Of a stretch of 58,105 nucleotides of DNA, positions 5,640 through 58,105 are shown in pieces (the first letter of the stretch is position 1; each line of letters opens with the position of its first letter). The notes under the pieces are model-generated. The model did no database searches. It saw only the letters and a list, made by a program, of their open reading frames with translations, and had not been told where the DNA came from. The position numbers and the translations under genes are program-made. Source of the stretch: a virus; IMG/VR virus record IMGVR_UViG_3300025712_000001, one strand, 5' to 3'.

Positions 5640-5851
5640 ATGGTACAAAATTAGTAAATAGAATAAGAGCTCCATGGTCAATCAAATTCAAAGATGATAA
5701 ACGATTTCCTATCGGCTCTCACAACTTACGATTTATACGTACGACTAATCGCTGGGGTGAGAAAGGTACTCTAAGTAATAATCGAGGTTATTTAAGAGTA
5801 GCAAGAAACTTTGCTGATGGTAAATTCTGTAGTATAGCAGAAATGTCATGA
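5636..5851 (+). CDS. Hypothetical protein, 71 aa, basic
   Basis: ORF track; ATGA overlap; GAAAGGA SD. Confidence 0.55.
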   Translation: MNGTKLVNRIRAPWSIKFKDDKRFPIGSHNLRFIRTTNRWGEKGTLSNNRGYLRVARNFADGKFCSIAEMS

Positions 5852-5994
5852 CAAGAAGTGAGTTCTTTAATTGGCTTCATACATGTCCATCAGTAGAATG
5901 GATAATTACAGAAACCAAAACAACTGAAAATAATTATGATATCATACAAGTAAGTTTCGCTGTTGATGATAATAATGTCGATGACGGAGCATAA
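5848..5994 (+). CDS. Hypothetical protein, 48 aa (not in ORF track)
   Basis: ATGA overlap with the stop at 5851. The product is MTRSEFFNWLHTCPSVEWIITETKTTENNYDIIQVSFAVDDNNVDDGA. I counted 49 codons. Confidence 0.4.
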   Translation: MTRSEFFNWLHTCPSVEWIITETKTTENNYDIIQVSFAVDDNNVDDGA

Positions 5995-6016
5995 GCAAGG
6001 ATAGGAATTAGAAAAT

Positions 6017-6574
6017 ATGTTAATTGATTTATTCAAAATTGGTATTTACAGAAACCATCTCACGTTAAACAATAAAGAATTAAAAGAATATTGTTATGAT
6101 GTTGAACAAAGCCAAAATGGCGTGAACATTTCTAACAAAGGTGGATTTCATTCTCATGATTTAGATACAAATAACATAAAGATAAAAGAATTTATGAGAC
6201 AAATCACTTCATTTGCAAATGTCTATTCAGAACAAATAGGCTACGGTGAAGTAAAACTTTCTAATATATGGTGTAATATAAATTCTTATAAAGATTATAA
6301 CCAATTGCATTGTCATCCTAATTCAAAAGTATCAGGTGTATATTATGTTAAAACTCCTGAAAATTGTGGTGAGATTGAGTTTCACAGCCCAGCTTATCAT
6401 GTATTAGAACAATCAAGCTTAAGTAGAGCAGATAATCCCTATACATCTATATCTTGGTGGATGCCTGCTGAAGAAAGTATATTATATTTATTTCCTAGTT
6501 GGTTAATGCATTTAGTAAGACCTAATATGAACAAAGAAGAAGAAAGAATATCTTTCTCATTTAATTTAAATTAA
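6017..6574 (+). CDS. 2OG-Fe(II) oxygenase superfamily protein (small cupin type, PF13759/TIGR02466-like)
   Basis: LHCHPNSKVSGVYYV...GEIEFHSP...LFPSWLMHLVRPN...RISFSFN. This pattern is typical of the 2OG oxygenases common in marine phages. Recalled from memory. Confidence 0.7.
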   Translation: MLIDLFKIGIYRNHLTLNNKELKEYCYDVEQSQNGVNISNKGGFHSHDLDTNNIKIKEFMRQITSFANVYSEQIGYGEVKLSNIWCNINSYKDYNQLHCHPNSKVSGVYYVKTPENCGEIEFHSPAYHVLEQSSLSRADNPYTSISWWMPAEESILYLFPSWLMHLVRPNMNKEEERISFSFNLN

Positions 6575-6603
6575 CTTATAAAACGGAATAAAGAATTATA
6601 AAA

Positions 6604-6652
6604 TAAAAAAGCCGCTAAGAATACGTTACGTACTCTTAGCGGCTTATTTGTT
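6604..6652. terminator. Bidirectional rho-independent terminator between convergent genes
   Basis: AAAAAA-GCCGCTAAGAATACG-TTA-CGTACTCTTAGCGGC-TTATTTGTTT. A 15-bp stem (6611..6643) is flanked by an A-run and a T-run. It is homologous to the hairpin at 19369..19403. Confidence 0.75.
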
Positions 6653-6665
6653 TGGCTTTTAAAAT

Positions 6666-7067
6666 CTAACCCACATCCGAAAGTTCCTTTATTTTCCGGT
6701 CTAACTCGTCTTCTGTAAGTTCCGTTGTATCTAAATTCCTAGTAGTCTGATCTACTCTTTGCAGTTTAGGCTGTTCATATTCTGCTAATGCAATAGCTAA
6801 TCTCTCAATAGTATCTTGATCTTCAAGCTGCATAGCTTTAATTAGCTGTACTTTAAGAATCTCAACTGCCGTGGGCATCTCTGTAATTATCTCATCTCTG
6901 ATTTTTCTAAATTCAGAAGCAGATAATTTCATGGACTCCCTAAGTTGCCTGTTCTGTCTTCGTGCTTCCGCACCTTTAGCCTGCATCTCCTTAGCTTTCT
7001 CAGAATCCATATAGGGCTTGAGTTGCTTAAGGGAATTAGGATGCTTGCCGCAGTTCTCGTAACCCAT
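6666..7067 (-). CDS. Terminase-small-subunit-like / DNA-binding protein, 133 aa; the only leftward gene inside the rightward arm
   Basis: The track start at 7079 is a TTG. ATG 7067 has a GGAGG SD. The N-terminus GKHPNSLKQLKP and the pattern LAEYEQPKLQRVDQT recall small terminase families. It carries the same promoter-like 18-mer as terL. Confidence 0.35.
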   Translation of the reverse strand: MGYENCGKHPNSLKQLKPYMDSEKAKEMQAKGAEARRQNRQLRESMKLSASEFRKIRDEIITEMPTAVEILKVQLIKAMQLEDQDTIERLAIALAEYEQPKLQRVDQTTRNLDTTELTEDELDRKIKELSDVG

Positions 7068-7080
7068 GTAAACCTCCAAG

Positions 7081-7109
7081 TTAAGTGTCTTTTAGGAGAC
7101 ATTTAAAAT
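7081..7109 (+). promoter_or_regulatory. Sigma70-like promoter candidate for the rightward operon starting at 7145
   Basis: TTAAGT - 17 nt - TAAAAT, located 36 nt upstream of ATG 7145. It overlaps the leftward 18-mer on the opposite strand. Confidence 0.25.
7089..7106 (-). promoter_or_regulatory. T7-promoter-like 18-mer, copy C, 22 nt upstream of ATG 7067
   Basis: The minus strand reads TTAAATGTCTCCTAAAAG followed by ACACTTAACTTGGAGGTTTACATG. Confidence 0.45.
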
Positions 7110-7144
7110 TTTAACAAACCGGCATCTCGTAAGGAGTGAGAATA

Positions 7145-7276
7145 ATGTATATGACAGAAAAACAGAAAGACGATTACATCTTTAAAGTAGAATGGATTGA
7201 AGATGCTATGAAACACGGGAAAATGACCCGTAAAGAAGCAGAAAATTATTGGTACGATCAAGAATATTGGTATTAA
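7145..7276 (+). CDS. Hypothetical protein, 43 aa (not in ORF track)
   Basis: AAGGAG SD at 7131..7136. The product is MYMTEKQKDDYIFKVEWIEDAMKHGKMTRKEAENYWYDQEYWY. The stop lies 1 nt before ATG 7278. Confidence 0.45.
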   Translation: MYMTEKQKDDYIFKVEWIEDAMKHGKMTRKEAENYWYDQEYWY

Positions 7277-7277
7277 A

Positions 7278-7709
7278 ATGACAGACTACTTAAAGATTAT
7301 AAGAGATACTGAAAAATGGTTCGAGTCCAGAGGAGAACCAATTCCTAACTATCTTTCAGGTAAACAACCAAAAACGCCCGAGAGCGTTTTCTCAATCAAT
7401 AACATTATAAAGGATAAACCTATGGCGAAAGTAACAGCCGTGCAGGTTCTTAAAGAAGCTGCTGAACTTAAGGAAAGAAAGAGTAAAGACTATCAAGGTG
7501 GAATGTGGTCAGAAGAAGATTACTTTCCGTTCGGAGATAAGTCTTATATTCATATGATACATACAAAGTATTTACGTATGAGAAATATAGTTGAAGGCGA
7601 TCAAGAAACGAACTTCGAAGCCTTAGAAGACACGCTCATAGACATGGCAGTATACTGTGCTATGTTCGCAGCATATCTAGAAAATGTTAAAATGGAAAAG
7701 GATAACTAA
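7278..7709 (+). CDS. DUF1599-like nucleotide-modification-associated protein; the functional start may be ATG 7422 (95 aa)
   Basis: KSKDYQGG...YIHMIHTKYLRMRNI resembles DUF1599. Hairpin copy 3 lies in frame inside codons 31-38, and ATG 7422 has its own AAAGGA SD. Confidence 0.55.
   Translation: MTDYLKIIRDTEKWFESRGEPIPNYLSGKQPKTPESVFSINNIIKDKPMAKVTAVQVLKEAAELKERKSKDYQGGMWSEEDYFPFGDKSYIHMIHTKYLRMRNIVEGDQETNFEALEDTLIDMAVYCAMFAAYLENVKMEKDN
7370..7392 (+). promoter_or_regulatory. Conserved 23-nt hairpin element, copy 3 of 3 (inside ORF 7278..7709)
   Basis: AAAAACGCCCGAGAGCGTTTTCT. Exactly 29 nt separate it from ATG 7422, the same spacing as copy 1 to ATG 2430. Confidence 0.5.
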
Positions 7710-8389
7710 TGCTTTTAGTTAAGGACATCAGGAAATTATTCCGAGATGAATACAAACTAAATAGAATAAGAAACGGTACAGTAGAACTACAAGGTGTATC
7801 GTTTAAAGCTGATCTAAGTTCTATATTTGGTATACCTAATAGATATTATATAGACGCAGAATTAAAGTGGTACATATCTAAAGATAGAAAAGTACAAAAG
7901 CTATTTGATATATACGGTAAGACTGTGAAAATATGGAATGATGTCAAGGACATACATGGCGAAGTTAATTCTAACTACGGCTGGTGTATATTCAGTGATG
8001 AAAGAGGTAATCAATTTAGAGCAGCATGTAAAGCTCTGCTTAAAGATAATAATACTAGACAAAGTGTTATGATATATACTACACCTGACATGCATAAAAT
8101 AGCAGGTAAAGACTTCACATGTACTAACGCGCAACAGTTCTTCATTAAAGAAAACAAGCTGCACACAGTAGTACAAATGAGATCTCAAGATGCTGTATAC
8201 GGCTACAATAATGACATAGCGTGGTTTAAATATGTACATGCAGCAATGCTGAATAACCTATTTAAGATAAAGAATCTTAAATTAGGCGATGTAATAATGC
8301 AGATAGGTTCTTTACATGTATATGAAAGACACTTTAAATATTTAGAAGAAAACAATAAACAATTAGCTTTAAACTTAGGAGAACAGTAA
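7709..8389 (+). CDS. Deoxycytidylate 5-hydroxymethyltransferase (T4 gp42-type, thymidylate-synthase fold)
   Basis: ELKWYISKD, EVNSNYGWCIF, FTCTNAQQFF, MRSQDAVYGYNNDIAWFKYV and GSLHVYERHF parallel T4 gp42 as I recall it. Cys138 and Asp169 are 31 residues apart, like gp42 Cys148 and Asp179. Asp occupies the position of the thymidylate synthase Asn. Confidence 0.8.
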   Translation: MLLVKDIRKLFRDEYKLNRIRNGTVELQGVSFKADLSSIFGIPNRYYIDAELKWYISKDRKVQKLFDIYGKTVKIWNDVKDIHGEVNSNYGWCIFSDERGNQFRAACKALLKDNNTRQSVMIYTTPDMHKIAGKDFTCTNAQQFFIKENKLHTVVQMRSQDAVYGYNNDIAWFKYVHAAMLNNLFKIKNLKLGDVIMQIGSLHVYERHFKYLEENNKQLALNLGEQ

Positions 8390-8838
8390 TGCCTTACGTA
8401 ATATACCCTGAAGATCAATGGCATAATACCATAGACTCGTTTCACGATAAGTTTGGTGTGCATGACTGGATTAATGATAAACTAGCTAATAAAGACTATG
8501 ATATTCTTAAAAAGTTCATGGACTTTAGATTAAACTTTTTGAAAGAAGAATTAAATGAAACAGAGAAAGCAATTACAGAAGGCGATGCTAAAGAAATCGT
8601 TGATGGTCTTATTGATCTATGTGTTGTCGCCATTGGAACGTTGGATGCATTTGGCTGCGACGCCCATGGTGCTTGGTCTACCGTCATGGAAGCCAACATG
8701 GAGAAAGACGTTGGTGTTAAACCTTCGAGGCCCAATCCTCTCGGTCTACCTGATCTTATTAAACCTAAAGGTTGGAACGGACCTGACCATACGCACACTA
8801 CAGGAATACTAGAAGAAGTTTATAGAAAGGCAATATAA
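8389..8838 (+). CDS. All-alpha NTP pyrophosphohydrolase (MazG-like; candidate dCTPase analogous to T4 gp56)
   Basis: FRLNFLKEELNETEKA...EIVDGLIDLCVVAIGTLDAFG...VMEANMEK is typical of MazG-like phage NTP-PPases. ATGA-type coupling on both sides. Confidence 0.65.
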   Translation: MPYVIYPEDQWHNTIDSFHDKFGVHDWINDKLANKDYDILKKFMDFRLNFLKEELNETEKAITEGDAKEIVDGLIDLCVVAIGTLDAFGCDAHGAWSTVMEANMEKDVGVKPSRPNPLGLPDLIKPKGWNGPDHTHTTGILEEVYRKAI

Positions 8839-10385
8839 TGAGCCTAAATTCTAAAGAAAAGAAAAACAAAAAAGTAATAGTATTAGGCGGTGGAACTGCG
8901 GGCTGGTTTACAGCTTTATTTGCAAGAAAGTTTTTATCGAATGATATCACTGTGATTGAGAATAGAAAGAAGGGTATTGTAGGAGTGGGGGAAGGAACAA
9001 CTCCGCCTATCATGGACTTTTTAAAGATGTTGGATATCCATCCTTATGAAGTGATAGCGAATACAGGAGGGACATTAAAGAATGGTATTAGTTTTGAGAG
9101 ATGGAATAAAGACAGCGATGATGATGTTTATTTCCATCCATTTAATGACTTAGGACAATACAACAACTTTAGTATGGACAACATATTTTCGCATGGTTGT
9201 AGAGATTATTATATCAAAGAAGTAATTGGTAAAAAATTAGACTTAAAGAAACATTTATGGATATCAAGATTATCTTATGAGAATAGAGTTGACGATACCG
9301 AAACCACTACTGCACTGCATTTTGATACATTTGCGTTAGGCGATTATCTTTCTACTAAAGCAAAAGATAGAGGCATTAAACATATAGATGGAAACTTTGT
9401 TGATGCGGAGTTGGATAAGGATGGGTTTGTAACTAAGGTAACACTTGAAGACGGTAGAAAATATAACTGTGATTTTATTTTTGATTGCACAGGTTTAAGT
9501 AAAACAATTTTAAAAAAGAAATTAGATCAGAAATTTATAAGTTATTCTGATACGTTAGCAATGAAAAAAGCATTGGTGATACCTAAAAAAGAACCAGGTT
9601 ATTTCCCTTATACAAAAGCTATTGCTATGAAATATGGTTGGACGTTTGAAATACCTTTACAATATCGAATAGGTAGAGGTTATATTTTTGATAGTGATTA
9701 TATAAATGAAACTCAAGCTTATGATGAAGTTACTAAGTTTTATAAGGAAGATATTGAAGTCCAAAAAGTTATATCTTTTGATGCGGGTAGGATGGAAAAA
9801 GCCTGGATAAAAAATTGTATAAGTGTAGGGTTAGCACAATCGTTTGTAGAACCATTAGAAGCTACATCTATATGGACAACGATAGAGATGTTAAATCATT
9901 TAAAACATTTTGTAAATTGTTTTGAAAATCACAATGAAGTTTCAATAACAAATTATAATAATGATGTGAACAATATGTTAGACAACATTAAAGATTTTAT
10001 ACGGTTTCATTATATTTCAAATAGAAATGACAGTGATTTTTGGAAAGAGTTCCCCAAAAAATATAAAATGTCTAGTTATATTGAAAATCAAGTAGCTTCA
10101 ATGAAGGCCGGAAACTTACAGTATCGTTGTGTAAAAGATTATTTAGCCGCTTTCGATCTATCGTCTTGGTTAGCAGTAGGTAATGGATTAAATATATTCA
10201 CTGACTATGACAATAATGGATATGAGAATATAAAACCATCGGTTAAAGAAATGAAGTTTCTAATAGATAAGAATATTAAAGAAAGACCTTTAATGAAAGA
10301 CTGGTTAAATAAAAATATAGGCAAAGATCTTAAAGTTCTTAAAGACTTGCATGATAAGGAGGCGCGATATGAACCTAAGTTCTAA
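8838..10385 (+). CDS. Flavin-dependent halogenase family protein (tryptophan halogenase, PF04820-like)
   Basis: VIVLGGGTAGW (FAD site); GVGEGTTP; Lys81 in GTLKNGISFERW (PrnA Lys79 position); GWTFEIPL (WxWxIP with the second W replaced by F); FVEPLEATSI (conserved Glu motif). Confidence 0.85.
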   Translation: MSLNSKEKKNKKVIVLGGGTAGWFTALFARKFLSNDITVIENRKKGIVGVGEGTTPPIMDFLKMLDIHPYEVIANTGGTLKNGISFERWNKDSDDDVYFHPFNDLGQYNNFSMDNIFSHGCRDYYIKEVIGKKLDLKKHLWISRLSYENRVDDTETTTALHFDTFALGDYLSTKAKDRGIKHIDGNFVDAELDKDGFVTKVTLEDGRKYNCDFIFDCTGLSKTILKKKLDQKFISYSDTLAMKKALVIPKKEPGYFPYTKAIAMKYGWTFEIPLQYRIGRGYIFDSDYINETQAYDEVTKFYKEDIEVQKVISFDAGRMEKAWIKNCISVGLAQSFVEPLEATSIWTTIEMLNHLKHFVNCFENHNEVSITNYNNDVNNMLDNIKDFIRFHYISNRNDSDFWKEFPKKYKMSSYIENQVASMKAGNLQYRCVKDYLAAFDLSSWLAVGNGLNIFTDYDNNGYENIKPSVKEMKFLIDKNIKERPLMKDWLNKNIGKDLKVLKDLHDKEARYEPKF

Positions 10386-11121
10386 ACCTTTGATTTTAAA
10401 CTGCTACACTACTGATGCGACAGTTTATAACAACGCTAAGATTAATTATGCTACAAAATTTATGCCCGATTGGTTTAAGAAAACCCCAAATAATGTAACG
10501 CTCAAAGATGGATCGATGGTTGGATCTATAAAAAATTGTCATGGTTTTACAGAAATGTACAGAACAGCTATAGTTATCCCATGTTGGACTGAGTTCACAC
10601 TTGATATACTACATAAAGACGACGAAGAACTTTATAGATGGAGAACAGCCAAAAGTAAATTTGAAGTAGATCCTCACCCACAAGAGCAGTATCAAAAGTT
10701 TGCTGGTAAAGACGGGACATCTATTAAGTTAGTTTCTCCCTGGATGTTTCAATGTGACGAAGAGGTTAATTTTGTGTGGCATCAACCGACATGGAACATG
10801 CGGGATATTTTGGATAAACTTACTCTTTTACCCGCGACAGTAGATTATAATACACAACATGCCACTGAGATAAATTATTTTCTAGTGCGACGAGACTTTG
10901 AAAGACAGGTTGTGTTGAAAGCCCTAGAACCTTTAGTAATGCTTCAAGCTATGGATGCTAGAAAAGTAGAAATAAAAAATCATTTAATAACTCAAGAAGA
11001 AAAAGAGACACGATTTCTTTGGCACTATGAATTAGGTGGTAATAAAGAGACTAGTACTAGAACAAATAGAAATAATCGGATAGCTTTGCAGAAGCGTATT
11101 GAATACCTCAACTCAGAGTAA
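10369..11121 (+). CDS. Conserved hypothetical protein, 250 aa, translationally coupled to the halogenase homologue
   Basis: ATG 10369 lies 6 nt after an AAGGAGG SD, which I prefer over the track start at 10351. It overlaps the halogenase 3' end by 17 nt. Motif NCHGFTEMYRTAIVIPCW; no family recognised. Confidence 0.6.
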   Translation: MNLSSKPLILNCYTTDATVYNNAKINYATKFMPDWFKKTPNNVTLKDGSMVGSIKNCHGFTEMYRTAIVIPCWTEFTLDILHKDDEELYRWRTAKSKFEVDPHPQEQYQKFAGKDGTSIKLVSPWMFQCDEEVNFVWHQPTWNMRDILDKLTLLPATVDYNTQHATEINYFLVRRDFERQVVLKALEPLVMLQAMDARKVEIKNHLITQEEKETRFLWHYELGGNKETSTRTNRNNRIALQKRIEYLNSE

Positions 11122-11155
11122 GAGTAAACAAATTAAAGTAGAAGTGGAAAATAAA

Positions 11156-11674
11156 ATGGAACAAGATAACCCTAATTGGATAACGATACCAGTAACACAG
11201 GAATTTATAGATCAACGCGATGCTCGTGCTGAGAAATATAATCCTCGTGGCAGATCATTAGAAAAGCTGAAGATGGATATCGAATGTGAGATATTCGAGT
11301 GGTGGATGATACATGAAAATAAGTGGGACGACTCAGATCGATGGGAAATCGATGGTGTATGTCCTGTATACGGTAATGTAGATGTTAAGTTTGTAAAGAA
11401 ATGGTACAACGTATCATGCCAAAAGCTTATATACTTATTAAGACAACGCGACATAGTAGAAACTTTCTTATTCTGCGAATGGAAATACAGACCAATGGAT
11501 GGTGTTGCTGATCGACTATTAGTTGATGGTGATACAGTACAGGTCAACGTCTTAGGGGGCTTAGGCTACTGGGATTTAATAGATAGTTTGAAAACCTCTA
11601 AATATAATGGATTCTACGCTGATGTCAAAAGTATACTACGCAAAATGGATGGAGCTGAACAAGATGACAATTGA
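11156..11674 (+). CDS. Hypothetical protein, 172 aa
   Basis: I prefer internal ATG 11156 (MEQDNPNW...) because it does not overlap the upstream gene. The track start is 11099. Confidence 0.5.
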   Translation: MEQDNPNWITIPVTQEFIDQRDARAEKYNPRGRSLEKLKMDIECEIFEWWMIHENKWDDSDRWEIDGVCPVYGNVDVKFVKKWYNVSCQKLIYLLRQRDIVETFLFCEWKYRPMDGVADRLLVDGDTVQVNVLGGLGYWDLIDSLKTSKYNGFYADVKSILRKMDGAEQDDN

Positions 11675-11819
11675 TACTGACTTTATAACACAAAAACCTT
11701 ATGATACTTATACGTGTGAAATATGTAACAAAGAAATTTCTCGCATGTCGATAGATAAATCAGGAGATACATGTCCTATATGTGAGAATGGAAAGGAAAC
11801 AGATGAGACTAACGTTTGA
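11664..11819 (+). CDS. Small zinc-ribbon protein, 51 aa
   Basis: MTIDTDFITQKPYDTYTCEICNKEISRMSIDKSGDTCPICENG has a CxxC...CxxC pattern. The start overlaps the upstream stop. The track start is 11607. Confidence 0.45.
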   Translation: MTIDTDFITQKPYDTYTCEICNKEISRMSIDKSGDTCPICENGKETDETNV

Positions 11820-13632
11820 CATAGAAACAGACGGACTAGATGCTACTAAGATATGGTGTTTAGTCATAGAAAATATTGATACTGGTATGATAATGAAGTA
11901 CACAGATCAATCAGATAAATACCACGGAGATATACTAACAGGCTTAGCAGTTCTACAAAATGCAGAACTACTTGTAGCTCATAACGGTATAGGATTTGAT
12001 GCACTTATGATACTTAATATATACGGTATTGATTTGTATAATATAAAATTCTTTGATACTTGGTTAGCATCTCTTGTACTTAACTACAGACGTCCACATA
12101 AGCATGGACTTGCAGGCTGGGGCGAGCATCTTAAATATCCTAAGTTTCAATTCGATGATTGGACTGGATTCTCAGATGAGATGATGACTTACTGTGTAAG
12201 AGATGTTAAGCTAAACACTGAAGTATTCAAGATACTAGCTAAAGAACTTAATGAACTCGCTGCTAAACAACCTCTTATAAGTAACGGTTTAAGAGCAGAG
12301 ATGGAGACAGCTAAGTTTGATGCTTACTGTAGGCACTATGGCTGGAAGTTTGATATGGAAAGCGGTGCGGCACTTGCAGCTAAGCTTGTCATAGAAATGA
12401 GTGATATCGAAAAAGTTATAGAACCTAATTTACCTGACCTTGTACGTTATAAAGATAAGGTAGCTAAGACTCCTAAGTTTACTAAGAAAGGAGAGTATAC
12501 AGCTACTACAGCTCGTATGCTAACTGAATACTTAAACAGACCTGTAAATACTAAAGACACTCACCTGTTTCCAGCAGGTAAAGAGTTCCAACGTAAGACT
12601 GTAGTTAAATCTACGCTTGGTAATATGGAACAGGTTAAAGAATACTTATATAGTATAGGCTGGGAACCTGATGACTGGAAGGTAGTGAAGACTGCTTATG
12701 GTTGGCAGAAAACTACACCAAAGCTTACATCAACTTCACTTGCTAAGGTAGGTGAGCACGGTGTTCTGATAGATAACTGGACTACATTAAGGTCTCGTAT
12801 GGGTGTAGTGAAAGGTTGGTTCCGTGAACTTAAAAATGGTAGACTACATGGTAAACTATGGGTTGTAGGTACACCGACATTTCGCTGCCGTCATGAAGTC
12901 ATAGCTAATCTACCAGCTGCAACAGCTACGTTAGGTAAAGAGCTACGTCAGTTACTTGTAGCAGAAGAAGGACGTAAGATTGTAGGTGCTGACTCTAGTG
13001 GTAACCAATTCAGATCACTAGCACACTATGTTAATTCACCTGATCTTACTAATCAAATCTTATCTGGTGATATACATCAATATAATGCTGATGTTATAGG
13101 TACAGATAGACGTACAGCTAAGACGTGGATCTATGCATATCTATTTGGTGCAGGTGCAGCTAAGCTAGGTCAAGTACTATCAGGTAAGAAGTCAGCTAAA
13201 GTTGGCACAGAATCAATGGAGAAATATGGTGATGCTATACCAGGATTAAAGGTTCTAAGAGAAAAGATAGAATCTATATGGAAAGTAACATCAGGTCACG
13301 GTAATGTAGAAGGATACATACCAGGTCTTGATGGTCGCCGTGTATATACTCCTCAACCTTATCAAACACTTAACTACTTACTTCAATGCTGCGAAGCTGT
13401 GACTACAAAATCTGCTGTAGCTTATCAGATGAAGAAGATTAAATGTGAAGGCTTAGATGCAGAACCTAGATTATACTATCATGACGAGGTTGCATGGTCT
13501 GTAGCAGATAAAGATGCTGACAGAGTTCTTGAAATACTAGTAGAATCCTTTGCTGAAGGTCCAAAGAAAGTTGGCGTTGATATAATGGCAGGTGAAGGTT
13601 CAATAGGTAATAATTATGCAGAGGTACATTGA
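11803..13632 (+). CDS. DNA polymerase, family A, T7 gp5-like, with 3'-5' exonuclease
   Basis: MRLTFDIETDGL (Exo I); DSSGNQFRSLAHY (motif A); RRTAKTWIYAYLFGAG (motif B); YYHDEVAW (motif C). GAAAGGA SD before ATG 11803. The track start is 11782. Confidence 0.95.
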   Translation: MRLTFDIETDGLDATKIWCLVIENIDTGMIMKYTDQSDKYHGDILTGLAVLQNAELLVAHNGIGFDALMILNIYGIDLYNIKFFDTWLASLVLNYRRPHKHGLAGWGEHLKYPKFQFDDWTGFSDEMMTYCVRDVKLNTEVFKILAKELNELAAKQPLISNGLRAEMETAKFDAYCRHYGWKFDMESGAALAAKLVIEMSDIEKVIEPNLPDLVRYKDKVAKTPKFTKKGEYTATTARMLTEYLNRPVNTKDTHLFPAGKEFQRKTVVKSTLGNMEQVKEYLYSIGWEPDDWKVVKTAYGWQKTTPKLTSTSLAKVGEHGVLIDNWTTLRSRMGVVKGWFRELKNGRLHGKLWVVGTPTFRCRHEVIANLPAATATLGKELRQLLVAEEGRKIVGADSSGNQFRSLAHYVNSPDLTNQILSGDIHQYNADVIGTDRRTAKTWIYAYLFGAGAAKLGQVLSGKKSAKVGTESMEKYGDAIPGLKVLREKIESIWKVTSGHGNVEGYIPGLDGRRVYTPQPYQTLNYLLQCCEAVTTKSAVAYQMKKIKCEGLDAEPRLYYHDEVAWSVADKDADRVLEILVESFAEGPKKVGVDIMAGEGSIGNNYAEVH

Positions 13633-14772: not shown

Positions 14773-16410
14773 ATGGAAATGAGTAACTATATACAAACAG
14801 AATGCCCAGAATGTGATTCATCAGATGCATTCACTATTTACGATGATGGTGCACACTGTTTTTCATGTAACTATTCTACAAAGAAAGTGATAAATAATAT
14901 GGATAAAATTAAAGAAATTACTACAGAATTTACAGCTGCTCAAGATAATATACAACAGATAGGAGAGCTAAACAGCTTTGCTATTACAAGTCGTGGTATT
15001 TCTAAGCAAGTTGTAGACTATTTCGGTATAAAAATGGCAGTAAATCCTGATGGTTCAGGTGGTTCTCATTATTATCCGTACACTAGAGATAATAAAGTGG
15101 TAGCTTACAAAGAACGTAGGCTTCCAAAAGACTTTCTTACACACGGAGACTATAAACAATTACAGTTATTCGGTCAAAGTGTAGCAACAAGTGGTAAAAT
15201 AGTTGTTGTAACTGAAGGAGAACTCGATGCTTGTGCAGTTGCTCAGGCATTTATGGATAAATATAACAAAGTATTTCCAGTTGTTTCAATACCGAGCGCT
15301 ACAGGTACCAAGAGTTTACTAGATCATCGCTCTTGGCTGAGACGATTTGAATCAGTGGTGCTACTATTTGACTCAGATGATGCAGGAAATGCAGCAGTTG
15401 AACGTGCAGCTAAGATAATAGGTGCAGGTAAAGTTAAGGTAGGAGACTTACAAGGCTGTAAAGATCCGTGCGAACTACTTACTAAGCATGGGTCATACAG
15501 TATACTACAGGCTATATGGAATGCACAGACATGGTCTCCATCAGGTATAGTAGTAGGTGAACCTATCTGGCGAGAGTTTAAGAACAGACAGACTACCATA
15601 TCAGTACCGTATCCTACATGTTTGCAAGGATTGAATGATAAACTACAAGGAATAAGACACGGTGAAATTACTTTATTTACTTCAGGTACTGGCAGCGGTA
15701 AGTCTACTGTAATTAAAGAGATAGCTCTTGATTTACTTGATAAGACTGATAGTAAAGTAGGACTTATATCTCTCGAAGAAAGTATCGGTGATACTGCAGA
15801 GAAGTTTATAGCTATGTCTCTTCAGAGATCTCCGATGGATATCAAAGGTATTAAAGATGAAGAACTACGCAAAGGATTTGATACTATATTTAAAGATGAA
15901 AGGCTTGTTCTTCTTGACCATCAAGGATCTTGCTCTGATACTTCACTGTTAGATAAGATCGAGTACATGGCTCTCATGGGCTGTAAGTATTTAGTACTAG
16001 ATCACATCACCATTGCTGTATCTGAAGGTTCTGAAGGACGTAGTGGTAACGAAGCAATAGATAAATTGATGAGTGATTTACTTAAGATTGTAAAGAAACA
16101 TGACATATGGCTAGGTCTTATATCACACTTAAGAAAAGCACAAGGTGATAAGAAATCATTCGAAGAAGGTAACATAGCTTCTATCGATGACATCAAAGGC
16201 AGTGGCTCTATCAAACAAATATCATTTGATATTATAGCATTTGCTAGAAACTTAATAGCAGACGACGATATTAAAAGAAATACAATAGAATTTACAGTGC
16301 TTAAGTCTAGGTTTACAGGTCACACAGGTAAGGCTGGTCATGCAACATATAATCCTAATACAGGTAGACTTAGTTTAGGCTATACTGAAGAGGGGTTCAC
16401 AGCTATATAA
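14773..16410 (+). CDS. Bifunctional primase-helicase (T7 gp4-like)
   Basis: Zinc finger CPECDSSDAFTIYDDGAHCFSCNY; TOPRIM VVVTEGELDA and LLFDSDDAGN; Walker A GTGSGKST; Walker B YLVLDHI. Confidence 0.95.
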   Translation: MEMSNYIQTECPECDSSDAFTIYDDGAHCFSCNYSTKKVINNMDKIKEITTEFTAAQDNIQQIGELNSFAITSRGISKQVVDYFGIKMAVNPDGSGGSHYYPYTRDNKVVAYKERRLPKDFLTHGDYKQLQLFGQSVATSGKIVVVTEGELDACAVAQAFMDKYNKVFPVVSIPSATGTKSLLDHRSWLRRFESVVLLFDSDDAGNAAVERAAKIIGAGKVKVGDLQGCKDPCELLTKHGSYSILQAIWNAQTWSPSGIVVGEPIWREFKNRQTTISVPYPTCLQGLNDKLQGIRHGEITLFTSGTGSGKSTVIKEIALDLLDKTDSKVGLISLEESIGDTAEKFIAMSLQRSPMDIKGIKDEELRKGFDTIFKDERLVLLDHQGSCSDTSLLDKIEYMALMGCKYLVLDHITIAVSEGSEGRSGNEAIDKLMSDLLKIVKKHDIWLGLISHLRKAQGDKKSFEEGNIASIDDIKGSGSIKQISFDIIAFARNLIADDDIKRNTIEFTVLKSRFTGHTGKAGHATYNPNTGRLSLGYTEEGFTAI

Positions 16411-16859
16411 TGCCAGATAAAAATAAACTAGACCAGTTATTCATGGACATTACTAATAAGATATCTAATATGTCTCATGATAACGGTACAAAAGTAGGTG
16501 CTATCATTGTTAAAGATGGTAACATATTAAGTATGGGTTACAATGGCATGCCTTCGGGCATGTCTAATAACTGTAAAGATAAACACGGTGTAACTAATAA
16601 AGAAGTTATACACGCAGAGGCTAACGCCATCTGTAAGCTAGCACAAAGTACAAGCTCGTCTAAAGGTGCCACACTATACTGCACGTACTCACCTTGTATT
16701 GAATGTGCTAAACTAATACTGCAAAGCGGTATTGAGAGAGTAATATATGCTAACGATTATCGCGATGTAAACGGTAGAATATTACTAGACGATCAAATTA
16801 AAATAGGTAAGGTACAATATGCAGGATCAACTTCATTATATACAGGAGAAGATACGTAA
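16410..16859 (+). CDS. dCMP deaminase
   Basis: HAEANAI and PCIECAKLI zinc-binding motifs of the cytidine/deoxycytidylate deaminase family. Confidence 0.9.
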   Translation: MPDKNKLDQLFMDITNKISNMSHDNGTKVGAIIVKDGNILSMGYNGMPSGMSNNCKDKHGVTNKEVIHAEANAICKLAQSTSSSKGATLYCTYSPCIECAKLILQSGIERVIYANDYRDVNGRILLDDQIKIGKVQYAGSTSLYTGEDT

Positions 16860-37987: not shown

Positions 37988-39703
37988 TTAAGAACATTCT
38001 CTTTGTCCAGTTTGAGGGTCTATGAAGCACGCTTCGACTGGTCCCTCTTCTTTTGCCATTTCTACAGTTTCTTCTATAGTATTAAGTATGCCAAATCTTT
38101 TACCTGACATGCGGAATGTAGTGCAGCCTTTTGCCCCACCTTTCCATGCGTCAACATATACTTGTTTAAAGTCTTCATATGAGGTATCATCTCCAACGTT
38201 ACATGTCTTTGAACATGCTGAGTCTACATAATGCTGTGCTAATAATAGAACAGCTAAGTGATCTTGTACCGATATATCGTTTGCTGATCGGCCTTTTACT
38301 CCACGTGCGTATGCATAATCCTCCACGTTTTCCGTTTTAGGACCATCAAACGTTTGAATAATGCGTTCATAAGCATGGCTAAAAGTTGGCTCAATACCAC
38401 CACTAACATTATCAGCCACAAGGCTAATGGTACCAGTGGGAGCGATAGAAATAAGATGGCTATTGCGAATGCCATTTTCACGTATCTCCTTTTTTACAGA
38501 CGCAGGTAAAGTGCGAATGAAGTTTGATTGTAAATATTCTTCCCTATAAAGTGGGAAACATCCCTTAATACCAGCTAGTTTTGCTGATGCTTTATAGCAG
38601 TTGTCTCGTAAACATGCAAATATTTTTTCAGCCCATACGAGGAACTCAGGAGACGCATAAGGCATCCCTAACATTTCCCCTGCATTAGCTAAGCCAGTAA
38701 CGCCAAGCCCCATTCTACGCTTGTCTTTGGCTTCGTCAGACTGCTGCTTGAGTGGGTATATGGTTCTGTCTATAACATTATCCATAGCTTGCACTACAAT
38801 CGGTATATCTTCTTTAAACTGTTTAAAATTAAATGTATTGTCGACTATATATTTGGTTAAATTAAACGAGCCTAAAAGGCACGCACCATAAGGTGGAAGC
38901 GGTTGCTCACCACATGGATTTGTAGCTACTATCTCTTCACAATAGAAAAGATTATTCATCTCACTTATACGGTCAATAAATAATACACCCGGTTCAGCCC
39001 AGTCCCAAGTCGATTCCATAACGGAGTCCCATAGTTCACGCGCTGATATTGTTTTGTATTCGATTCCCTCATAGCTGAGTTGAAAATCATCATTCCCGTC
39101 ATTGGTTAAGGCCTCCATAAATTTGTCAGTGATACCTACACTAATATTAAAACCAGTAAGCTTATCAGAATTACGTTTAGCAGCAATGAATTCCTCAATG
39201 TCCGGGTGATCGATCCTGAGGACACCCATCTGCGCCCCACGTCTGTGTCCCGAGCTAGCGATGGTTTGACACACAGCATCAAAGATACCCATGAAGGATA
39301 TAGGACCGCTAGACTGGCTATCGAGTGATTTAATTTTGTCGCCTCTTGGTCTGATCTTACTAAAATCATAACCAATGCCACCGCCTCTACGCATTGTTTC
39401 AGCTGCTTCACTTGCTTTCTCCATGATACTATGCATGCTATCTTCTATTGTACCTGATACAAAGCAGTTATATGCTGTGGTAATTCTATTAGATCCTACT
39501 GAAGATTGTACTCTACCTGCTGGTAGAAATCGCATTGTACCTAAAATATCTTCCAGACTATACTGATGCTCTTTGTCATCAGCCAAAGCTCTTGCTATTC
39601 TTTTTATTTTATCGTTAAAGCTTTCCCCTTTTTGCCTATACTTCATCTCATCGATCTCTTGTGATAGCGAAGTTACTGGTCCAGGATAGTCTATATTGTG
39701 CAT
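37988..39703 (-). CDS. nrdJ: Ribonucleotide reductase, class II (adenosylcobalamin-dependent) type, 571 aa
   Basis: NPCGEQPLPPYGACLLGSFNL active-site loop; ISIAPTGTISL; C-terminal Cys pair. No beta subunit gene anywhere in the genome. Confidence 0.85.
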   Translation of the reverse strand: MHNIDYPGPVTSLSQEIDEMKYRQKGESFNDKIKRIARALADDKEHQYSLEDILGTMRFLPAGRVQSSVGSNRITTAYNCFVSGTIEDSMHSIMEKASEAAETMRRGGGIGYDFSKIRPRGDKIKSLDSQSSGPISFMGIFDAVCQTIASSGHRRGAQMGVLRIDHPDIEEFIAAKRNSDKLTGFNISVGITDKFMEALTNDGNDDFQLSYEGIEYKTISARELWDSVMESTWDWAEPGVLFIDRISEMNNLFYCEEIVATNPCGEQPLPPYGACLLGSFNLTKYIVDNTFNFKQFKEDIPIVVQAMDNVIDRTIYPLKQQSDEAKDKRRMGLGVTGLANAGEMLGMPYASPEFLVWAEKIFACLRDNCYKASAKLAGIKGCFPLYREEYLQSNFIRTLPASVKKEIRENGIRNSHLISIAPTGTISLVADNVSGGIEPTFSHAYERIIQTFDGPKTENVEDYAYARGVKGRSANDISVQDHLAVLLLAQHYVDSACSKTCNVGDDTSYEDFKQVYVDAWKGGAKGCTTFRMSGKRFGILNTIEETVEMAKEEGPVEACFIDPQTGQRECS

Positions 39704-43670: not shown

Positions 43671-44035
43671 TCCTCATCTTGAGGATTAATTATCCAAGTT
43701 GTCTCTGATTCATCCCAAGCATATTCGTTGTTATCTGAGGGATAAGGTACTGGAGCTTCCCATATACATGTAGTCTCATTTAATACCCAAGAAGGGAACT
43801 TTTTAGGTTCTATAAAAGCATCTCTAGTAGAATCATAAGTGTAATCTATACCAGCAAAATTCTTACGAAAAGTTTTATTGTAAGATGTTTGAACCCAATT
43901 ACCACCTAACAGATCCTTACAGAACTGCACTCCTATTGCCTCTGACTCATTCCCATCTTCATCAAGTATGTCGCTGTTATCTACAACTATTACTCGAGTC
44001 ACTAGGTTGCTTTCTATTTGTGCAAAATGTGCCAT
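43667..44035 (-). CDS. Conserved hypothetical phage protein, 122 aa
   Basis: ORF track; ATGA overlap downstream. Confidence 0.55.
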   Translation of the reverse strand: MAHFAQIESNLVTRVIVVDNSDILDEDGNESEAIGVQFCKDLLGGNWVQTSYNKTFRKNFAGIDYTYDSTRDAFIEPKKFPSWVLNETTCIWEAPVPYPSDNNEYAWDESETTWIINPQDEE

Positions 44036-44043
44036 ATTTCCTC

Positions 44044-45012
44044 CTATTGATACTGATATCTTATCACGACAATTCCAGAGCCACCACTAAAAGATCCGTT
44101 GCTCAGTCGCGCACCACCAGCTCCACCACCAGTGTTTGCTGTACCGTTAGTACCACCATTTGCGCCGCCACCTCTAGCATTTGAACCACGACCGCCGCCG
44201 CCAGAGCCGCCTAATCCGCCACCTTGAGAGGCGTATTCTCCACAACCGCCGCCGCCGCCACCGTAAGTGCTGCCATTTAACCATTGCGAACCATTACCAC
44301 CATAGCCACCACTTGTGGAGGATGAGTTGGAACCAACAGCACTAGCACCACCGCCGCCGCCACCAGTGCCACCTCGCGTACTGACACCACCGTTGTTACC
44401 TTGCCCTGATATACCAGTGCCAACAGTAGAAGATGACGAGCAAGTTCCGCTACCAGAACCCCCATTTTTACCGTGACACGAACCATTCCATGAACTACCG
44501 CCGCCACCACCAGTAGAGGAAGTTCCAAAGGCAGAACTAGCATTACCATTATTACTGTAGTAGCTAGTAGCAGCTGGAGCGCCTGCGCCGATAACCACTG
44601 AGTAACTTGCTACACTCTTAGATTGTGAAGCTAAAGCTTGATAGCCCCCAGCACCAGCACCACTTGAGTTATCTACTGAACTGCCACCACCTCCTGCAAC
44701 TACTACATAATCAATTCCACCACCCGCAGAATTAGCTGCGGTTTGAATGGCAAAAGTTCCTGATCCTGTAAAGGTGTGATATTTGTAGTTTCCAGATGTG
44801 GTTACCGTTCCGCCTGTAGCAGCATAGAAAACCTGATTCTGTGCGCCATGGAAATTTGAGAGAGAAATTGCACCAGACGTGGGTACATTTGTATTATTTG
44901 AAGTGGTATAAGCCCCGCCTCTATAGTATTCACTTAAAGAATGAGGGGCACTGCCACCAAATTCAGCGGCAATCTGCGCTAGTGTTATTGTACCGCTACT
45001 TGGTAAAGCCAT
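44044..45012 (-). CDS. Glycine-rich structural protein, 322 aa
   Basis: The N-terminus GTITLAQIAAEFGGSAPHSLSEYYRGG is followed by long poly-Gly tracts. It lies directly downstream of the fibre genes. Confidence 0.55.
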   Translation of the reverse strand: MALPSSGTITLAQIAAEFGGSAPHSLSEYYRGGAYTTSNNTNVPTSGAISLSNFHGAQNQVFYAATGGTVTTSGNYKYHTFTGSGTFAIQTAANSAGGGIDYVVVAGGGGSSVDNSSGAGAGGYQALASQSKSVASYSVVIGAGAPAATSYYSNNGNASSAFGTSSTGGGGGSSWNGSCHGKNGGSGSGTCSSSSTVGTGISGQGNNGGVSTRGGTGGGGGGASAVGSNSSSTSGGYGGNGSQWLNGSTYGGGGGGCGEYASQGGGLGGSGGGGRGSNARGGGANGGTNGTANTGGGAGGARLSNGSFSGGSGIVVIRYQYQ

Positions 45013-46318
45013 TTTGATTCTCCTCTAATTCTTTAACCTTATCTGAAAGTTCTTTAACAGCTTCTATGAGTAAACCAACCATGTTGCCGTAAGCTACTGC
45101 CATATTATCTTCAGGTGTCTCTCCTAAGACTACAGCTTCGGGCAATACCTTTAATACTTCCTGAGCAATAACACCTGTATGCTTTTCTTGTTTATCTTCT
45201 GAGTCTGTCCTAGTGTATGTGTATCCATTAAGCTGTTCAACTTTAGATAAAGCATCAGGGATGACCTCTAGGTTGTCTTTTATTCTAAGGTCTGAATATG
45301 CAGTTACGTTACCACTAGCAACAACATCACCAGTGACGCCTACCCCAGTATTTGTGGTGTTTATTTTACCTGCGCCATTGTACATAAGGACAGTTTGAGC
45401 ATTTTTTAAACAATAAATAGAATCTTCATAAGCGGGGGACGATCCTGCCGCTCTAATATGTAAAGCATCTGTAAAGTCTATGTAATTATTACTAGCCGCA
45501 TTTAAATTTAACTCACCTGACAAATTTATGTCGCCAGTAGTAGTAAGCGGACCTGTAGTGACTGCACCTGACGCTGCGATTGTAGTTGCAGCCATCTCAC
45601 CTGTGACTGTTACGCCAGTAGCTTTGGTGGCTAGTTTAGTAACATTATCATACCTTAAAGAAACCGCACCGTCTGATGCGCATATGACGTAAACCTCATT
45701 CGCAGCATTTCTGAGGTACAGATCAGTTCCCCGAAGATTCAAGCTACCCGTACCACTATCATGAATATAACTATTACTACCATCGTGATAAATCTCTAAG
45801 TCAGAACCAGTACCAAACAATGCTTTGGCATCGTCAGGCATTGTAATGCCACCATTATGCACAGTAGCCGCAGTTGTGGTTAATACACCTGTTACGAGGG
45901 CAGTGCCATCTATTACAGCGTTGCTTGAGAGGTCCATCGTAGTTGCAGCCATCTCACCTGTGACTGTTACGCCAGTGGCTTTGGTGGCCAGTTTGGTTGC
46001 CCCATTGTGATGCAACATAGCTACGTCACCTTGTTGAGTAATGATATTATCACCAGAAGAGTTCGTAATTAAAACGCTTCCAGTACCACCAGGAGCAACA
46101 ACTACTGTATTATTTCCAGCATTATTACCTTTAACCCAATTATTAGACCCGTCATGATAAATCTGTAAATCATCACCTGCACCAAATGTAGCCTTGTCAT
46201 TATCGCCTAATGCTATTCCGCTACCGGCTGTAATAGCTGCTCCCACATTATCGAGGGCAGTGGTTATCACATCTCCTGAAGATGTCAGGAGGTTAGACAT
46301 TGTTCTTGCTTTACTCAT
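44996..46318 (-). CDS. Tail fibre / spike protein with a C-terminal S74 intramolecular chaperone domain, 440 aa
   Basis: SDLRIKDNLEVIPDALSKVEQLNGYTYTRTD...HTGVIAQEVLKVLPEAVV...AVAYGNMVGLLIEAVKEL. Internal duplication of the LxIYHDGSN...KLATKATGVTVTGEMAATT module. Confidence 0.8.
   Translation of the reverse strand: MSKARTMSNLLTSSGDVITTALDNVGAAITAGSGIALGDNDKATFGAGDDLQIYHDGSNNWVKGNNAGNNTVVVAPGGTGSVLITNSSGDNIITQQGDVAMLHHNGATKLATKATGVTVTGEMAATTMDLSSNAVIDGTALVTGVLTTTAATVHNGGITMPDDAKALFGTGSDLEIYHDGSNSYIHDSGTGSLNLRGTDLYLRNAANEVYVICASDGAVSLRYDNVTKLATKATGVTVTGEMAATTIAASGAVTTGPLTTTGDINLSGELNLNAASNNYIDFTDALHIRAAGSSPAYEDSIYCLKNAQTVLMYNGAGKINTTNTGVGVTGDVVASGNVTAYSDLRIKDNLEVIPDALSKVEQLNGYTYTRTDSEDKQEKHTGVIAQEVLKVLPEAVVLGETPEDNMAVAYGNMVGLLIEAVKELSDKVKELEENQNGFTK
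45582..45997. repeat. Pair of 59-bp direct repeats (45582..45640 and 45939..45997) inside the 440-aa fibre gene
   Basis: GTAGTTGCAGCCATCTCACCTGTGACTGTTACGCCAGT[A/G]GCTTTGGTGGC[T/C]AGTTT[A/G]GT. I found 3 mismatches in 59. Confidence 0.85.
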
Positions 46319-49300: not shown

Positions 49301-49425
49301 GCACGGTCAACATCAACTCCAATTATATCAGGGATACCGTCAATTAATGTATCAGTAAACAAACCACCACTAGCAGCGTTATCTGTCGCTCCAGTAAATG
49401 AGCCGGGTCTTGCGGGTGTTGTCAT
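46315..49425 (-). CDS. Long tail fibre with Ala/Thr/Ser-rich coiled region and a C-terminal S74 chaperone domain, 1036 aa
   Basis: SDERVKENIEVIPEALNKVKQLSGYTFDRTD...TGVIAQEVIKVLPEAVM...YAVAYGNMVGLLIEAIKEQ. The module (ETAETNA)n ... LWYDTT...KVY appears twice. Confidence 0.85.
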   Translation of the reverse strand: MTTPARPGSFTGATDNAASGGLFTDTLIDGIPDIIGVDVDRAETAATNAEASATTATTQATSATASAATATTQATAASTDAASALASKTSATASQAAATASQTAAAASETAAGTSATNAAASQSAAASSATSAGSSNTTAAQSANSALSSASSASTSAGTATTQATSATASAATATTQAASATTQAAAALVSKNAAAASETAALASKNAAAASETAAGTSETNAAASKTAAETAETNAETAETNAETAETNAAASATSASTSATNAASSLTTFQGLFVASSSAPASPDVGDLWYDTTTSQLKVYVAGSPASWQIAGAYLQGLIANHTFTCTAGQTVFTTDDASGTMSIDVAANVFAYLNGVKLIGGGTDYSISGNTITLTSGAIVSDVLYVDILTKISTTQETALNALVTQATAAKTAAETAETNAETAETNAATSATAAGTSATNAATSATSASNSATSSATSATSSAGSLTSFNDIYRGESSTAPSSPATGQLWYDTTNTAMKVYSGSAWTAAYVSGTGFLATTGGALTGAVTTTSTFDGRDVAADGTKLDTIETNADVTDTVNVTAAGALMDSEVTNLAQVKAFDSSDYATAAQGTLAAAALPKAGGTMTGTTSHGDNVKSTWGTAPDLEVYHTGSHSRIADVGTGKLQLGSATQVEILNGDFSEPLAQFVPDGAVTLYHNNAAKIATTATGIDVTGETATDTLNVKSGTTADSTGQPSGNFAATVYHATNSSSSHGLLVKNNWAATASTVFEAGLDISGGAYRQYHKIDGTGQAFWSPGNVERMRVTGTGLEVTGNVVVSGTVDGRDVATDGTKLDGIEASADVTDATNVTAAGALMKTGGTMTGLLVTKTPTSTTVAGANDNSFSVRGNTTYPAVMSFHRGGAYAVNFGLSTANKMELGGWSASTIKHTWDFSGNYTATGNITAYSDERVKENIEVIPEALNKVKQLSGYTFDRTDFVPDAETGVMPETRQTGVIAQEVIKVLPEAVMTMDDGKYAVAYGNMVGLLIEAIKEQQVQIDELKATVESKGVTS
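48128..48169. repeat. Two tandem 21-nt coding repeats (ETAETNA units), second cluster
   Basis: GCGTTAGTCTCTGCTGTTTCC / GCATTTGTTTCCGCAGTTTCA on the plus strand. Confidence 0.8.
48671..48733. repeat. Three tandem 21-nt coding repeats (ETAETNA units), first cluster
   Basis: GCATTAGTCTCTGCTGTTTCA / GCATTTGTCTCAGCAGTCTCA / GCGTTAGTCTCAGCAGTTTCA on the plus strand. Confidence 0.85.
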
Positions 49426-57887: not shown

Positions 57888-58105
57888 TTATAGCCACAAA
57901 GTATCATCTTGATCTTCCATTGAAAACTGTTGAGACCACGGTACTTTATTAAGCGTTAGTTTATCATAGTGCGTACGTAATGTTTCTAAAGCAATAGCTG
58001 TTGCCATAACTGTATCATCATGACAGCCAGGTGCTGCTTCAGTCTTACCTGATTCTGTAGCAATATAATCTCTTATTTCTTGTATCATTATTTTAGATGG
58101 TATTA
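57888..58105 (-). CDS. terL: Terminase large subunit, C-terminal end (continuation of 1..1577 across the circular junction)
   Basis: ...IQEIRDYIATESGKTEAAPGCHDDTVMATAIALETLRTHYDKLTLNKVPWSQQFSMEDQDDTLWL ends at a stop at 57888. Bases 57979..58105 duplicate 1..127. Confidence 0.9.
   Translation of the reverse strand, partial: IPSKIMIQEIRDYIATESGKTEAAPGCHDDTVMATAIALETLRTHYDKLTLNKVPWSQQFSMEDQDDTLWL
57979..58105. repeat. 127-bp terminal overlap, identical to 1..127
   Basis: See feature 1..127. Confidence 0.95.

Follow-up and report, generated by a model that had tools for sequence, protein, structure and literature searches.

The viral DNA of IMG/VR record IMGVR_UViG_3300025712_000001, a stretch of 58,105 nucleotides that was analysed at its full length and is here called the window, carries six open reading frames (ORFs) on the plus strand between positions 7278 and 11674. 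They encode a DUF1599-like protein (7278-7709), a homologue of the T4 gp42 deoxycytidylate 5-hydroxymethyltransferase (7709-8389), a MazG-like protein (8389-8838), a flavin-dependent halogenase (8838-10385) and two further proteins, here called ORF5 (10369-11121) and ORF6 (11156-11674). A first-pass annotation, made from the letters of the sequence, had read the six genes as one operon for a possible new cytosine modification. The six ORFs are found where it placed them, and its family calls for 7709-8389, 8389-8838, 8838-10385, the 2-oxoglutarate (2OG)-Fe(II) oxygenase gene 6017-6574 and the dCMP deaminase gene 16410-16859 hold in Pfam and PHROG scans; the chain of overlapping or abutting stops and starts that it described is broken at the ORF5/ORF6 junction, where there is a 34-nt gap. 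We consider it probable that a conserved T4-type 5-hydroxymethylcytosine (hmC) nucleotide module and an unrelated set of auxiliary genes lie here side by side.

The product of gene 7709-8389 (plus strand, 226 aa) matches the Pfam family Thymidylat_synt (6.4e-18). When it was compared by phmmer with all PDB sequences the top match was T4 dCMP hydroxymethylase 1b49 (E=1e-44, 156 bits), the best thymidylate synthase (TS) reaching only 4.3e-10, and against ThyA equivalogs it scored at most 56 bits, where the cut-offs are 108-405 bits (327 for the NCBIfam ThyA equivalog). By tblastn 93-95% of its length aligns, at about 45% identity, with gp42 of T4-like Aeromonas, Klebsiella and Acinetobacter phages, and this level of identity holds across 975 phage records. 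Residues Glu51, Cys138 and Asp169 align with T4 Glu60, Cys148 and Asp179. The spacing of 31 residues between Cys138 and Asp169 had been given exactly, and both the ranking of the matches and the catalytic residues speak for the earlier view that this TS-fold enzyme is of the gp42 type and not a thymidylate synthase. In the RR phosphate-binding pair it has TRQ, against SRR in T4, and thus keeps one Arg. We file the protein in the gp42 family, where its predicted activity would be the conversion of dCMP to 5-hydroxymethyl-dCMP (hm-dCMP), and a T4-like route to hm-dCMP is a reasonable prediction from the sequence. We found no paper tying a hydroxymethylase to pelagiphages.

The first gene of the core module, 7278-7709 (plus strand, 143 aa), encodes the DUF1599-like protein ("nucleotide modification associated domain 1"). 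Its Pfam score of 21.6 bits is under the gathering score of 25, but the homology to phrog_18404 (3e-15) and phrog_1485 (2e-13) and the 72% amino acid identity to gp36 of Pelagibacter phage Kolga, a gene at the equal position in that genome, uphold the call. Gene 8389-8838 (plus strand) encodes a MazG-like all-alpha nucleoside triphosphate (NTP) pyrophosphohydrolase of 149 aa (Pfam PRA-PH, 1.4e-8; phrog_671, 1.8e-21), whose best PDB match is the MazG-like protein DR2231 (5e-5). It is a candidate dCTPase/dUTPase. The dCMP deaminase (16410-16859, plus strand; Pfam 7.6e-25; phrog_174, 1e-50) has a position that is conserved in all relatives and may supply dUMP, as T4 cd does.

Neither ORF5 nor ORF6 matched anything in Pfam, NCBIfam or PADLOC, and tblastn searches of 50,697 phage records with ORF5, its homologue P0139 and ORF6 gave no match. 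Both had been described as belonging to no recognised family; this still applies to ORF6, whereas ORF5 is a member of phrog_7084 (7e-15). The start of ORF6 (plus strand) at 11156 is backed by homologues, and its AlphaFold2 model, built with 28 homologues, is confident (predicted local distance difference test, pLDDT, 90.5). The Foldseek matches of this model are weak and all of them are PD-(D/E)xK nucleases, namely the Hjc resolvase (E=0.024, TM 0.35-0.42), NhoI, DpnI, SwaI and AbaSI, and the invariant residues E43, E45, D66, D76-V-K78, Q97 and E108 are placed on the expected helix and strands. The modelled fold suggests a nuclease; judging from T4 and T7, it may break down unmodified host DNA or take part in recombination. 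ORF6 is present without a halogenase in every relative examined, directly after MazG or, in some of the more distant ones, after the polymerase, and because of this distribution we regard it as a core replication-module gene. An ORF of 70 aa with two CxxC pairs (zinc-ribbon-like) at 11607-11819 overlaps the ends of ORF6 and of the DNA polymerase gene, and in relatives a small ORF of 51-67 aa is found at this slot.

No kinase family and no glycosyltransferase family was recognised by Pfam or PHROGs in the ORFs scanned, the five largest and many small ORFs being outside the scan; for the ORFs covered this agrees with the earlier remark that no glucosyltransferase or extra kinase is recognisable. 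A Walker-A regular expression overlooked even the helicase and was dropped as a kinase test.

Gene 8838-10385 (plus strand) encodes a flavin-dependent halogenase of the Trp-halogenase family with 515 aa (Pfam 9.9e-101; 338 bits for Trp_halogenase, PF04820, with a cut-off of 21). Lys81 and Glu341 align with Lys79 and Glu346 of PrnA, and the flavin motif GGGTAGW at 17-23, GWTFEIP at 267 and FVEPLEATSI at 336 occupy precisely the positions first reported. The ORF is intact and all invariant family residues are kept, by which the enzyme would be catalytically competent. The change from Trp to Phe in the WxWxIP motif had been taken as a hint of a different chemistry. Since WxFxIP occurs in 26 of the 120 best homologues and throughout the closest clade, it is a clade feature, and we rejected it as a sign of unusual chemistry peculiar to this protein. 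Moreover, active halogenases without the canonical WxWxIP motif exist (PMC8407142). The homologues fall into tiers of identity: the protein's own cluster (100%), one homologue at 87%, the next clade at 62-69% and the remainder at 48% or less.

The phrog_7084-type family of ORF5 (plus strand) is large, with 1,532 representative clusters, and 54 of 55 sampled members match phrog_7084. A profile of the 55 sequences found no PDB chain, and no Pfam match was obtained for any member. The AlphaFold2 model of ORF5 was poor (pLDDT 60.6); with this low-confidence model Foldseek returned dUTPase/dCTP-deaminase folds from PDB (E=5e-4 to 3e-2) and similar ones from the viral library, in which uncharacterised phage proteins of the same family rank first, including one from cyanophage S-CAM3. 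The invariant residues of the family are Pro33, Cys57, Trp73, His103 and Trp125, with no conserved dUTPase-type Asp. An ORF5 homologue is found in an unrelated phage without halogenase (L017), and ORF5-family tandem paralogues lie in a myovirus island (L018:7303-8735) that also carries a halogenase, 2OG-oxygenases and a NUDIX gene. Examples of ORF5-family genes by halogenases are L114:6177-6998, L115:8454-9266 and L109:4099-4836, and in some loci the stop and start codons of the two genes overlap.

Related contigs were reached through ORF6 homologues. Four of them are colinear with the window save for two clean gaps, at 5995-6600 and 8842-11151, the nucleotide identity being 92-98% for L023 and L024, 92-97% for L031 and 86-91% for L032. 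These cassette-free genotypes occur in samples ERZ23499091, ERZ23498998, IMG 3300000101 and 3300039180. The second gap corresponds to an accessory insertion of 2.3 kb (8842-11151, plus strand) made up of the halogenase and ORF5, and by blastn window position 8840/8841 joins straight to 11152 in all four contigs. L023 and L024 encode a 143-aa DUF1599-like protein, a 226-aa TS-like protein, identical to that of the window in L023, and a 149-aa MazG, after which ORF6 (96% identical) follows directly. At the sister junction TAATGA the MazG stop overlaps the start of ORF6, whereas in the window this TAATGA provides the start of the halogenase. The more distant relatives (L020-L022, L025-L030 and L033-L040) have no halogenase and show the order MazG, ORF6, DNA polymerase, or else have ORF6 after the polymerase. 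Because the sister contigs keep the hmC module without the insertion, halogenase and ORF5 are to be seen as an accessory cassette. The proposal that the halogenase and two unknown ORFs form one pathway with the gp42-type enzyme finds no support here, as the cassette is absent from four sisters and ORF6 belongs to the core.

The first gap (5995-6600, plus strand) holds the 2OG-Fe(II) oxygenase gene 6017-6574 (PF13759, 2OG-FeII_Oxy_5; Pfam 1.5e-23; NCBIfam TIGR02466, 105 bits with a cut-off of 62.5) and is missing with identical borders (5994|6601) in L023, L024, L031 and L032. The 2OG-oxygenase is therefore a second accessory insertion in the cassette-bearing strain. Scans of 5800-12000 for sigma-70 promoters and terminators gave results at chance level, and no transcription unit within the cassette is defined by them. 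A GC-rich hairpin with a 17-bp stem followed by a T-run was observed at 6609-6645, between this insertion and the lone minus-strand gene 6666-7079; its sequence is kept in sister contig L023, so that the hairpin lies at the border of the insertion.

The surroundings of both enzymes were surveyed in an IMG/VR census of 14 gp42-like loci (38-100% identity) and 80 halogenase loci, the neighbours of the halogenases being taken within 7 kb; for the halogenases an alignment query was required, a single-sequence scan having given one distant locus only. All 14 gp42-like loci have the TS-like gene, together with DUF1599 in 12, MazG in 11 and ORF6 in nine, and DUF1599, the gp42-like gene, MazG and ORF6 are a conserved core module. 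Halogenase, ORF5-family and 2OG-FeII_Oxy_5 genes were found in none of the 14. The 80 halogenase loci contain the ORF5 family in 16 cases and 2OG-FeII_Oxy_5 in 36, and TS-like, DUF1599, MazG and ORF6 genes in none. A conserved co-occurrence of halogenase with gp42-like, MazG and DUF1599 genes was thus not observed in either set (0/14 and 0/80), contig L014, discussed below, being the sole exception. The first-pass annotation had itself counted a location of halogenase homologues outside nucleotide-metabolism modules as evidence against its proposal, and this location was observed in all 80 loci and for the closest cyanomyovirus homologues.

Outside the clade of the window the nearest halogenases, at about 64% identity, are found in auxiliary-gene islands of T4-like cyanomyoviruses, where their neighbours are several 2OG-Fe(II) oxygenases, haem oxygenase, bilin reductase and T4 neck genes. 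Unknown genes flanking these cyanomyovirus halogenases (212 and 207-215 aa) were tested as homologues of ORF5 and ORF6 and are not homologous. The best cultured match is that of pelagimyophage HTVC008M (41%), whose gene lies between the terminase subunits and beside a dioxygenase. The halogenase loci contain 70 2OG-FeII_Oxy_5 genes, 28 of them within 300 bp of a halogenase, and in many loci they directly adjoin it; of the 23 ORF5-family genes, 12 are no more than 1 kb from a halogenase, where uniform placement would give 6.2. The association of ORF5 with halogenase is modest, and we treat it as a lead. The recurrence of halogenase, 2OG-oxygenase and phrog_7084 across loci L045-L124 suggests that the three are a functional set. 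Halogenase-like genes have been described in 20 of 153 cyanophage genomes (PMC10452541) and those of jumbo cyanophages were assigned to secondary-metabolite-type clusters (PMC7824862). Our census fits these published accounts, in which the halogenases of phages count as auxiliary or secondary-metabolite genes, and we found no paper linking a halogenase to DNA modification.

Could the halogenase-fold enzyme and ORF5, possibly with ORF6, nevertheless make a new cytosine derivative from dCMP, hm-dCMP or DNA, replacing the glucosyltransferases of T4? The cassette genes are translationally coupled inside the hmC operon and the catalytic Lys and Glu of the halogenase are intact. Hypohalous acids halogenate C5 of cytosine and uracil, which makes a halogenase reaction on cytosine chemically conceivable. 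The four sisters (86-98% identity), however, keep an identical or near-identical hmC module and have no cassette; no gp42-like locus of the census holds a halogenase and no halogenase locus holds nucleotide-metabolism genes; ORF6 occurs everywhere without halogenase, and ORF5 occurs in phages without nearby TS or MazG genes. Moreover, C5 of hm-dCMP is already taken. We judge such a pathway to be very unlikely, and in all likelihood the halogenase does not belong to a new route of DNA modification.

Several observations do weigh against the side-by-side arrangement that we favour. On contig L014 (2.8 kb, 1-2847) the 3' end of a different gp42-like gene is followed, after one intervening gene, by a halogenase 87% identical to that of the window. 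Over 24 residues this gp42-like fragment is 79% identical to its counterparts in L042-L044, which share only 40% identity with the gp42-like gene of the window, and the similarity of L014 to the window at the nucleotide level is confined to the halogenase ORF. Halogenases beside hmC genes have thus arisen at least twice, in two lineages, and this independent juxtaposition also counts in favour of a new cytosine derivative, whereas the lack of an ORF5 after the L014 halogenase counts against it. The intervening gene of L014 encodes a 315-aa protein with a "GDSH" motif. The model of ORF5 is that of a weakly dUTPase/dCTP-deaminase-like beta-barrel, which would be a nucleotide-binding fold and likewise lends something to the cytosine pathway. 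In addition, as no deoxynucleoside monophosphate (dNMP) kinase was found in the ORFs scanned, hmC in the DNA is predicted only, and we know of no phage halogenase whose natural substrate has been established.

As evidence for a functional link L014 is weak, because it is a single extra case and because accessory genes cluster in the early/middle region of small genomes. It is mainly on account of L014 that we retain a slight probability for such a link, in which the halogenase, perhaps with ORF5, would act on DNA or a pyrimidine nucleotide, for instance halogenating dCMP or dUMP at C5, as an optional addition to the hmC system. Although this would explain the adjacency to gp42-like genes in two lineages, we hold it to be highly improbable. 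If it were true, cassette strains would make a halogenated or otherwise new base.

The module itself admits another explanation, namely that the gp42-like enzyme makes 5-methyl-dCMP, or that its product is never phosphorylated or incorporated and the module only shifts the pyrimidine pools. This would fit the failure to find a dNMP kinase and a glycosyltransferase in the ORFs scanned and the single Arg of the RR pair (TRQ against SRR in T4); moreover, the ThyA-like Asp variant that occupies the slot in relatives could be a dCMP methylase. T4 gp42 is characterised, though, and the T4-like gp42 family, to which our protein has about 45% full-length identity with the three catalytic residues kept, is annotated as dCMP hydroxymethylase. 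Protein 7709-8389 also lacks the C-terminal tail that thymidylate synthase requires for closing its active site in hydride transfer, and, as in T4, the conserved module includes genes for a pyrophosphatase and a nuclease-like protein. We therefore find this explanation unlikely and regard hmC in the phage DNA as a fairly likely prediction. Since no phage kinase was found in the ORFs scanned, hm-dCMP would be phosphorylated by the host or by an unrecognised kinase.

The variant just mentioned is a different TS homologue, ThyA-like and of 261-266 aa, observed in relatives between DUF1599 and MazG (L020:6801-7601, L027:2664-3455, L029:4758-5549 and, in Kolga, L016:8430-9215). In these proteins Asp replaces the substrate-specificity Asn (E. 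coli Asn177), with "PSDM" or "PFDM" against "PFNI" in thymidylate synthase. The whole phage group, including the cultured pelagiphage Kolga, may modify cytosine (5-methyl or 5-hydroxymethyl) by means of two non-orthologous enzymes.

It might also be supposed that the cassette is a recent passenger without function in this phage. It is known from one genotype only, represented by the window and by contig L013 (99.96% identical; from marine metagenome JGI 3300009071), and its GC content of 0.31-0.32 is slightly under the 0.35-0.38 of its flanks. Yet the halogenase ORF is intact with all invariant family residues, the translational coupling is precise, and the co-acquisition of three families suggests selection for the set, all of which leaves little room for a functionless passenger.

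According to the reading that we prefer, that of an hmC nucleotide module beside an unrelated auxiliary set, the MazG-like pyrophosphatase would convert dCTP to dCMP and the gp42-type enzyme, judging from homology and active-site residues, would transfer a hydroxymethyl group from methylene-tetrahydrofolate onto C5 of dCMP. The hm-dCMP would then be phosphorylated by the kinase proposed above, while dCMP deaminase would feed dTMP synthesis and ORF6, as a putative nuclease, would act on unmodified host DNA or in recombination. Halogenase and ORF5 would have been acquired precisely at the MazG/ORF6 junction, with the 2OG-Fe(II) oxygenase inserted 2.3 kb upstream; the three families appear to move together in the auxiliary islands that marine T4-like cyanophages and pelagiphages carry. 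The halogenase most likely halogenates a small aromatic metabolite with reduced flavin of the host, and would be co-transcribed with the early/middle genes merely through its landing site.

The T4 pathway comprises gp42, the dCTPase gp56, the dNMP kinase gp1, the dCMP deaminase cd and nucleases against cytosine-containing DNA. The window resembles T4 in having a gp42-family enzyme with the Glu, Cys and Asp, an adjoining all-alpha NTP pyrophosphatase, a dCMP deaminase and a nuclease-like gene. Unlike T4, which is a myovirus, it belongs to a podovirus-type phage of about 58 kb, whose RNA polymerase is T7-like and whose structural genes are SU10-like. No dNMP kinase or glucosyltransferase was seen in the ORFs scanned, and a DUF1599-like gene is present in addition; the pyrophosphatase is generic MazG-like and not gp56, and the nuclease-like protein would be a new PD-(D/E)xK variant. 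A gp42-type hmC nucleotide module is thus a known kind of system, newly seen in uncultured marine podovirus-type phages, and the halogenase inserted in one strain is a known type of marine-phage auxiliary gene.

Like VirX1 of Syn10, "PrnA" of HTVC008M and the halogenases of P-SSM2 and S-PM2, the window protein is of the Trp_halogenase family with Lys and Glu kept, and as in cyanophages and pelagiphages it is encoded by a variable auxiliary gene that stands alone without a flavin reductase and in the company of a 2OG-Fe(II) oxygenase. It differs in lying in the replication/nucleotide module of a small podovirus-type genome and not in a myovirus hypervariable island, and the protein has only 41% identity to that of HTVC008M, an E-value of 1e-44 to VirX1, and WxFxIP and EPLEAT motif variants.

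The nearest cultured relatives are Pelagibacter phage Kolga EXVC016S and Roseobacter phage CRP-7, neither of which has the halogenase, ORF5 or ORF6. Kolga shares the order DUF1599, TS-like gene, MazG, DNA polymerase, exonuclease and primase-helicase, with amino acid identities of 72% for DUF1599, 44% for MazG and 49% for the primase-helicase, whereas its TS-like gene, the ThyA-type Asp variant, is only 24% identical. Kolga gp33 and gp32 were tested as counterparts of ORF5 and ORF6 and are not; gp33 is a protein similar to single-stranded DNA-binding protein (SSB).

If the hmC prediction is true, widespread uncultured marine podovirus-type phages akin to Kolga and CRP-7 replace cytosine with a T4-type enzyme, doing without the T4 kinase and glucosyltransferases, and the sequencing, restriction and ocean counts of such viruses would be affected. 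The locus also calls for caution, as a shared operon in a phage with unidirectional early/middle genes does not amount to a shared pathway, a matter that can be settled by comparing sister strains. What viral halogenases do in nature can be approached through the recurrent trio of halogenase, 2OG-oxygenase and phrog_7084.

The window represents a complete, circularly assembled genome, since one stretch of 40 residues from a terminase-like ORF occurs at each end, giving a short terminal overlap. This ORF has more than 528 aa and extends beyond the start of the window on the minus strand (1-1590 and 57900-58105). The gene set includes a T7-like RNA polymerase, a family A DNA polymerase, a primase-helicase, a gp2.5-like SSB and a RusA-like protein, together with SU10-like capsid, portal and adaptor genes and a ribonucleotide reductase. 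The latter (Ribonuc_red_lgC, 4e-111; 37988-39703, minus strand), unmentioned in the first-pass annotation, lies amid late and structural genes, on the arm opposite to that of the other nucleotide-metabolism genes. The GC content reaches 0.43-0.46 across 44000-50000, against about 0.35 elsewhere, in a region that spans tail-fibre-like genes (Gly_rich_2, a Peptidase_S74 chaperone and a 1036-aa ORF) and that may be a recently exchanged host-recognition module.

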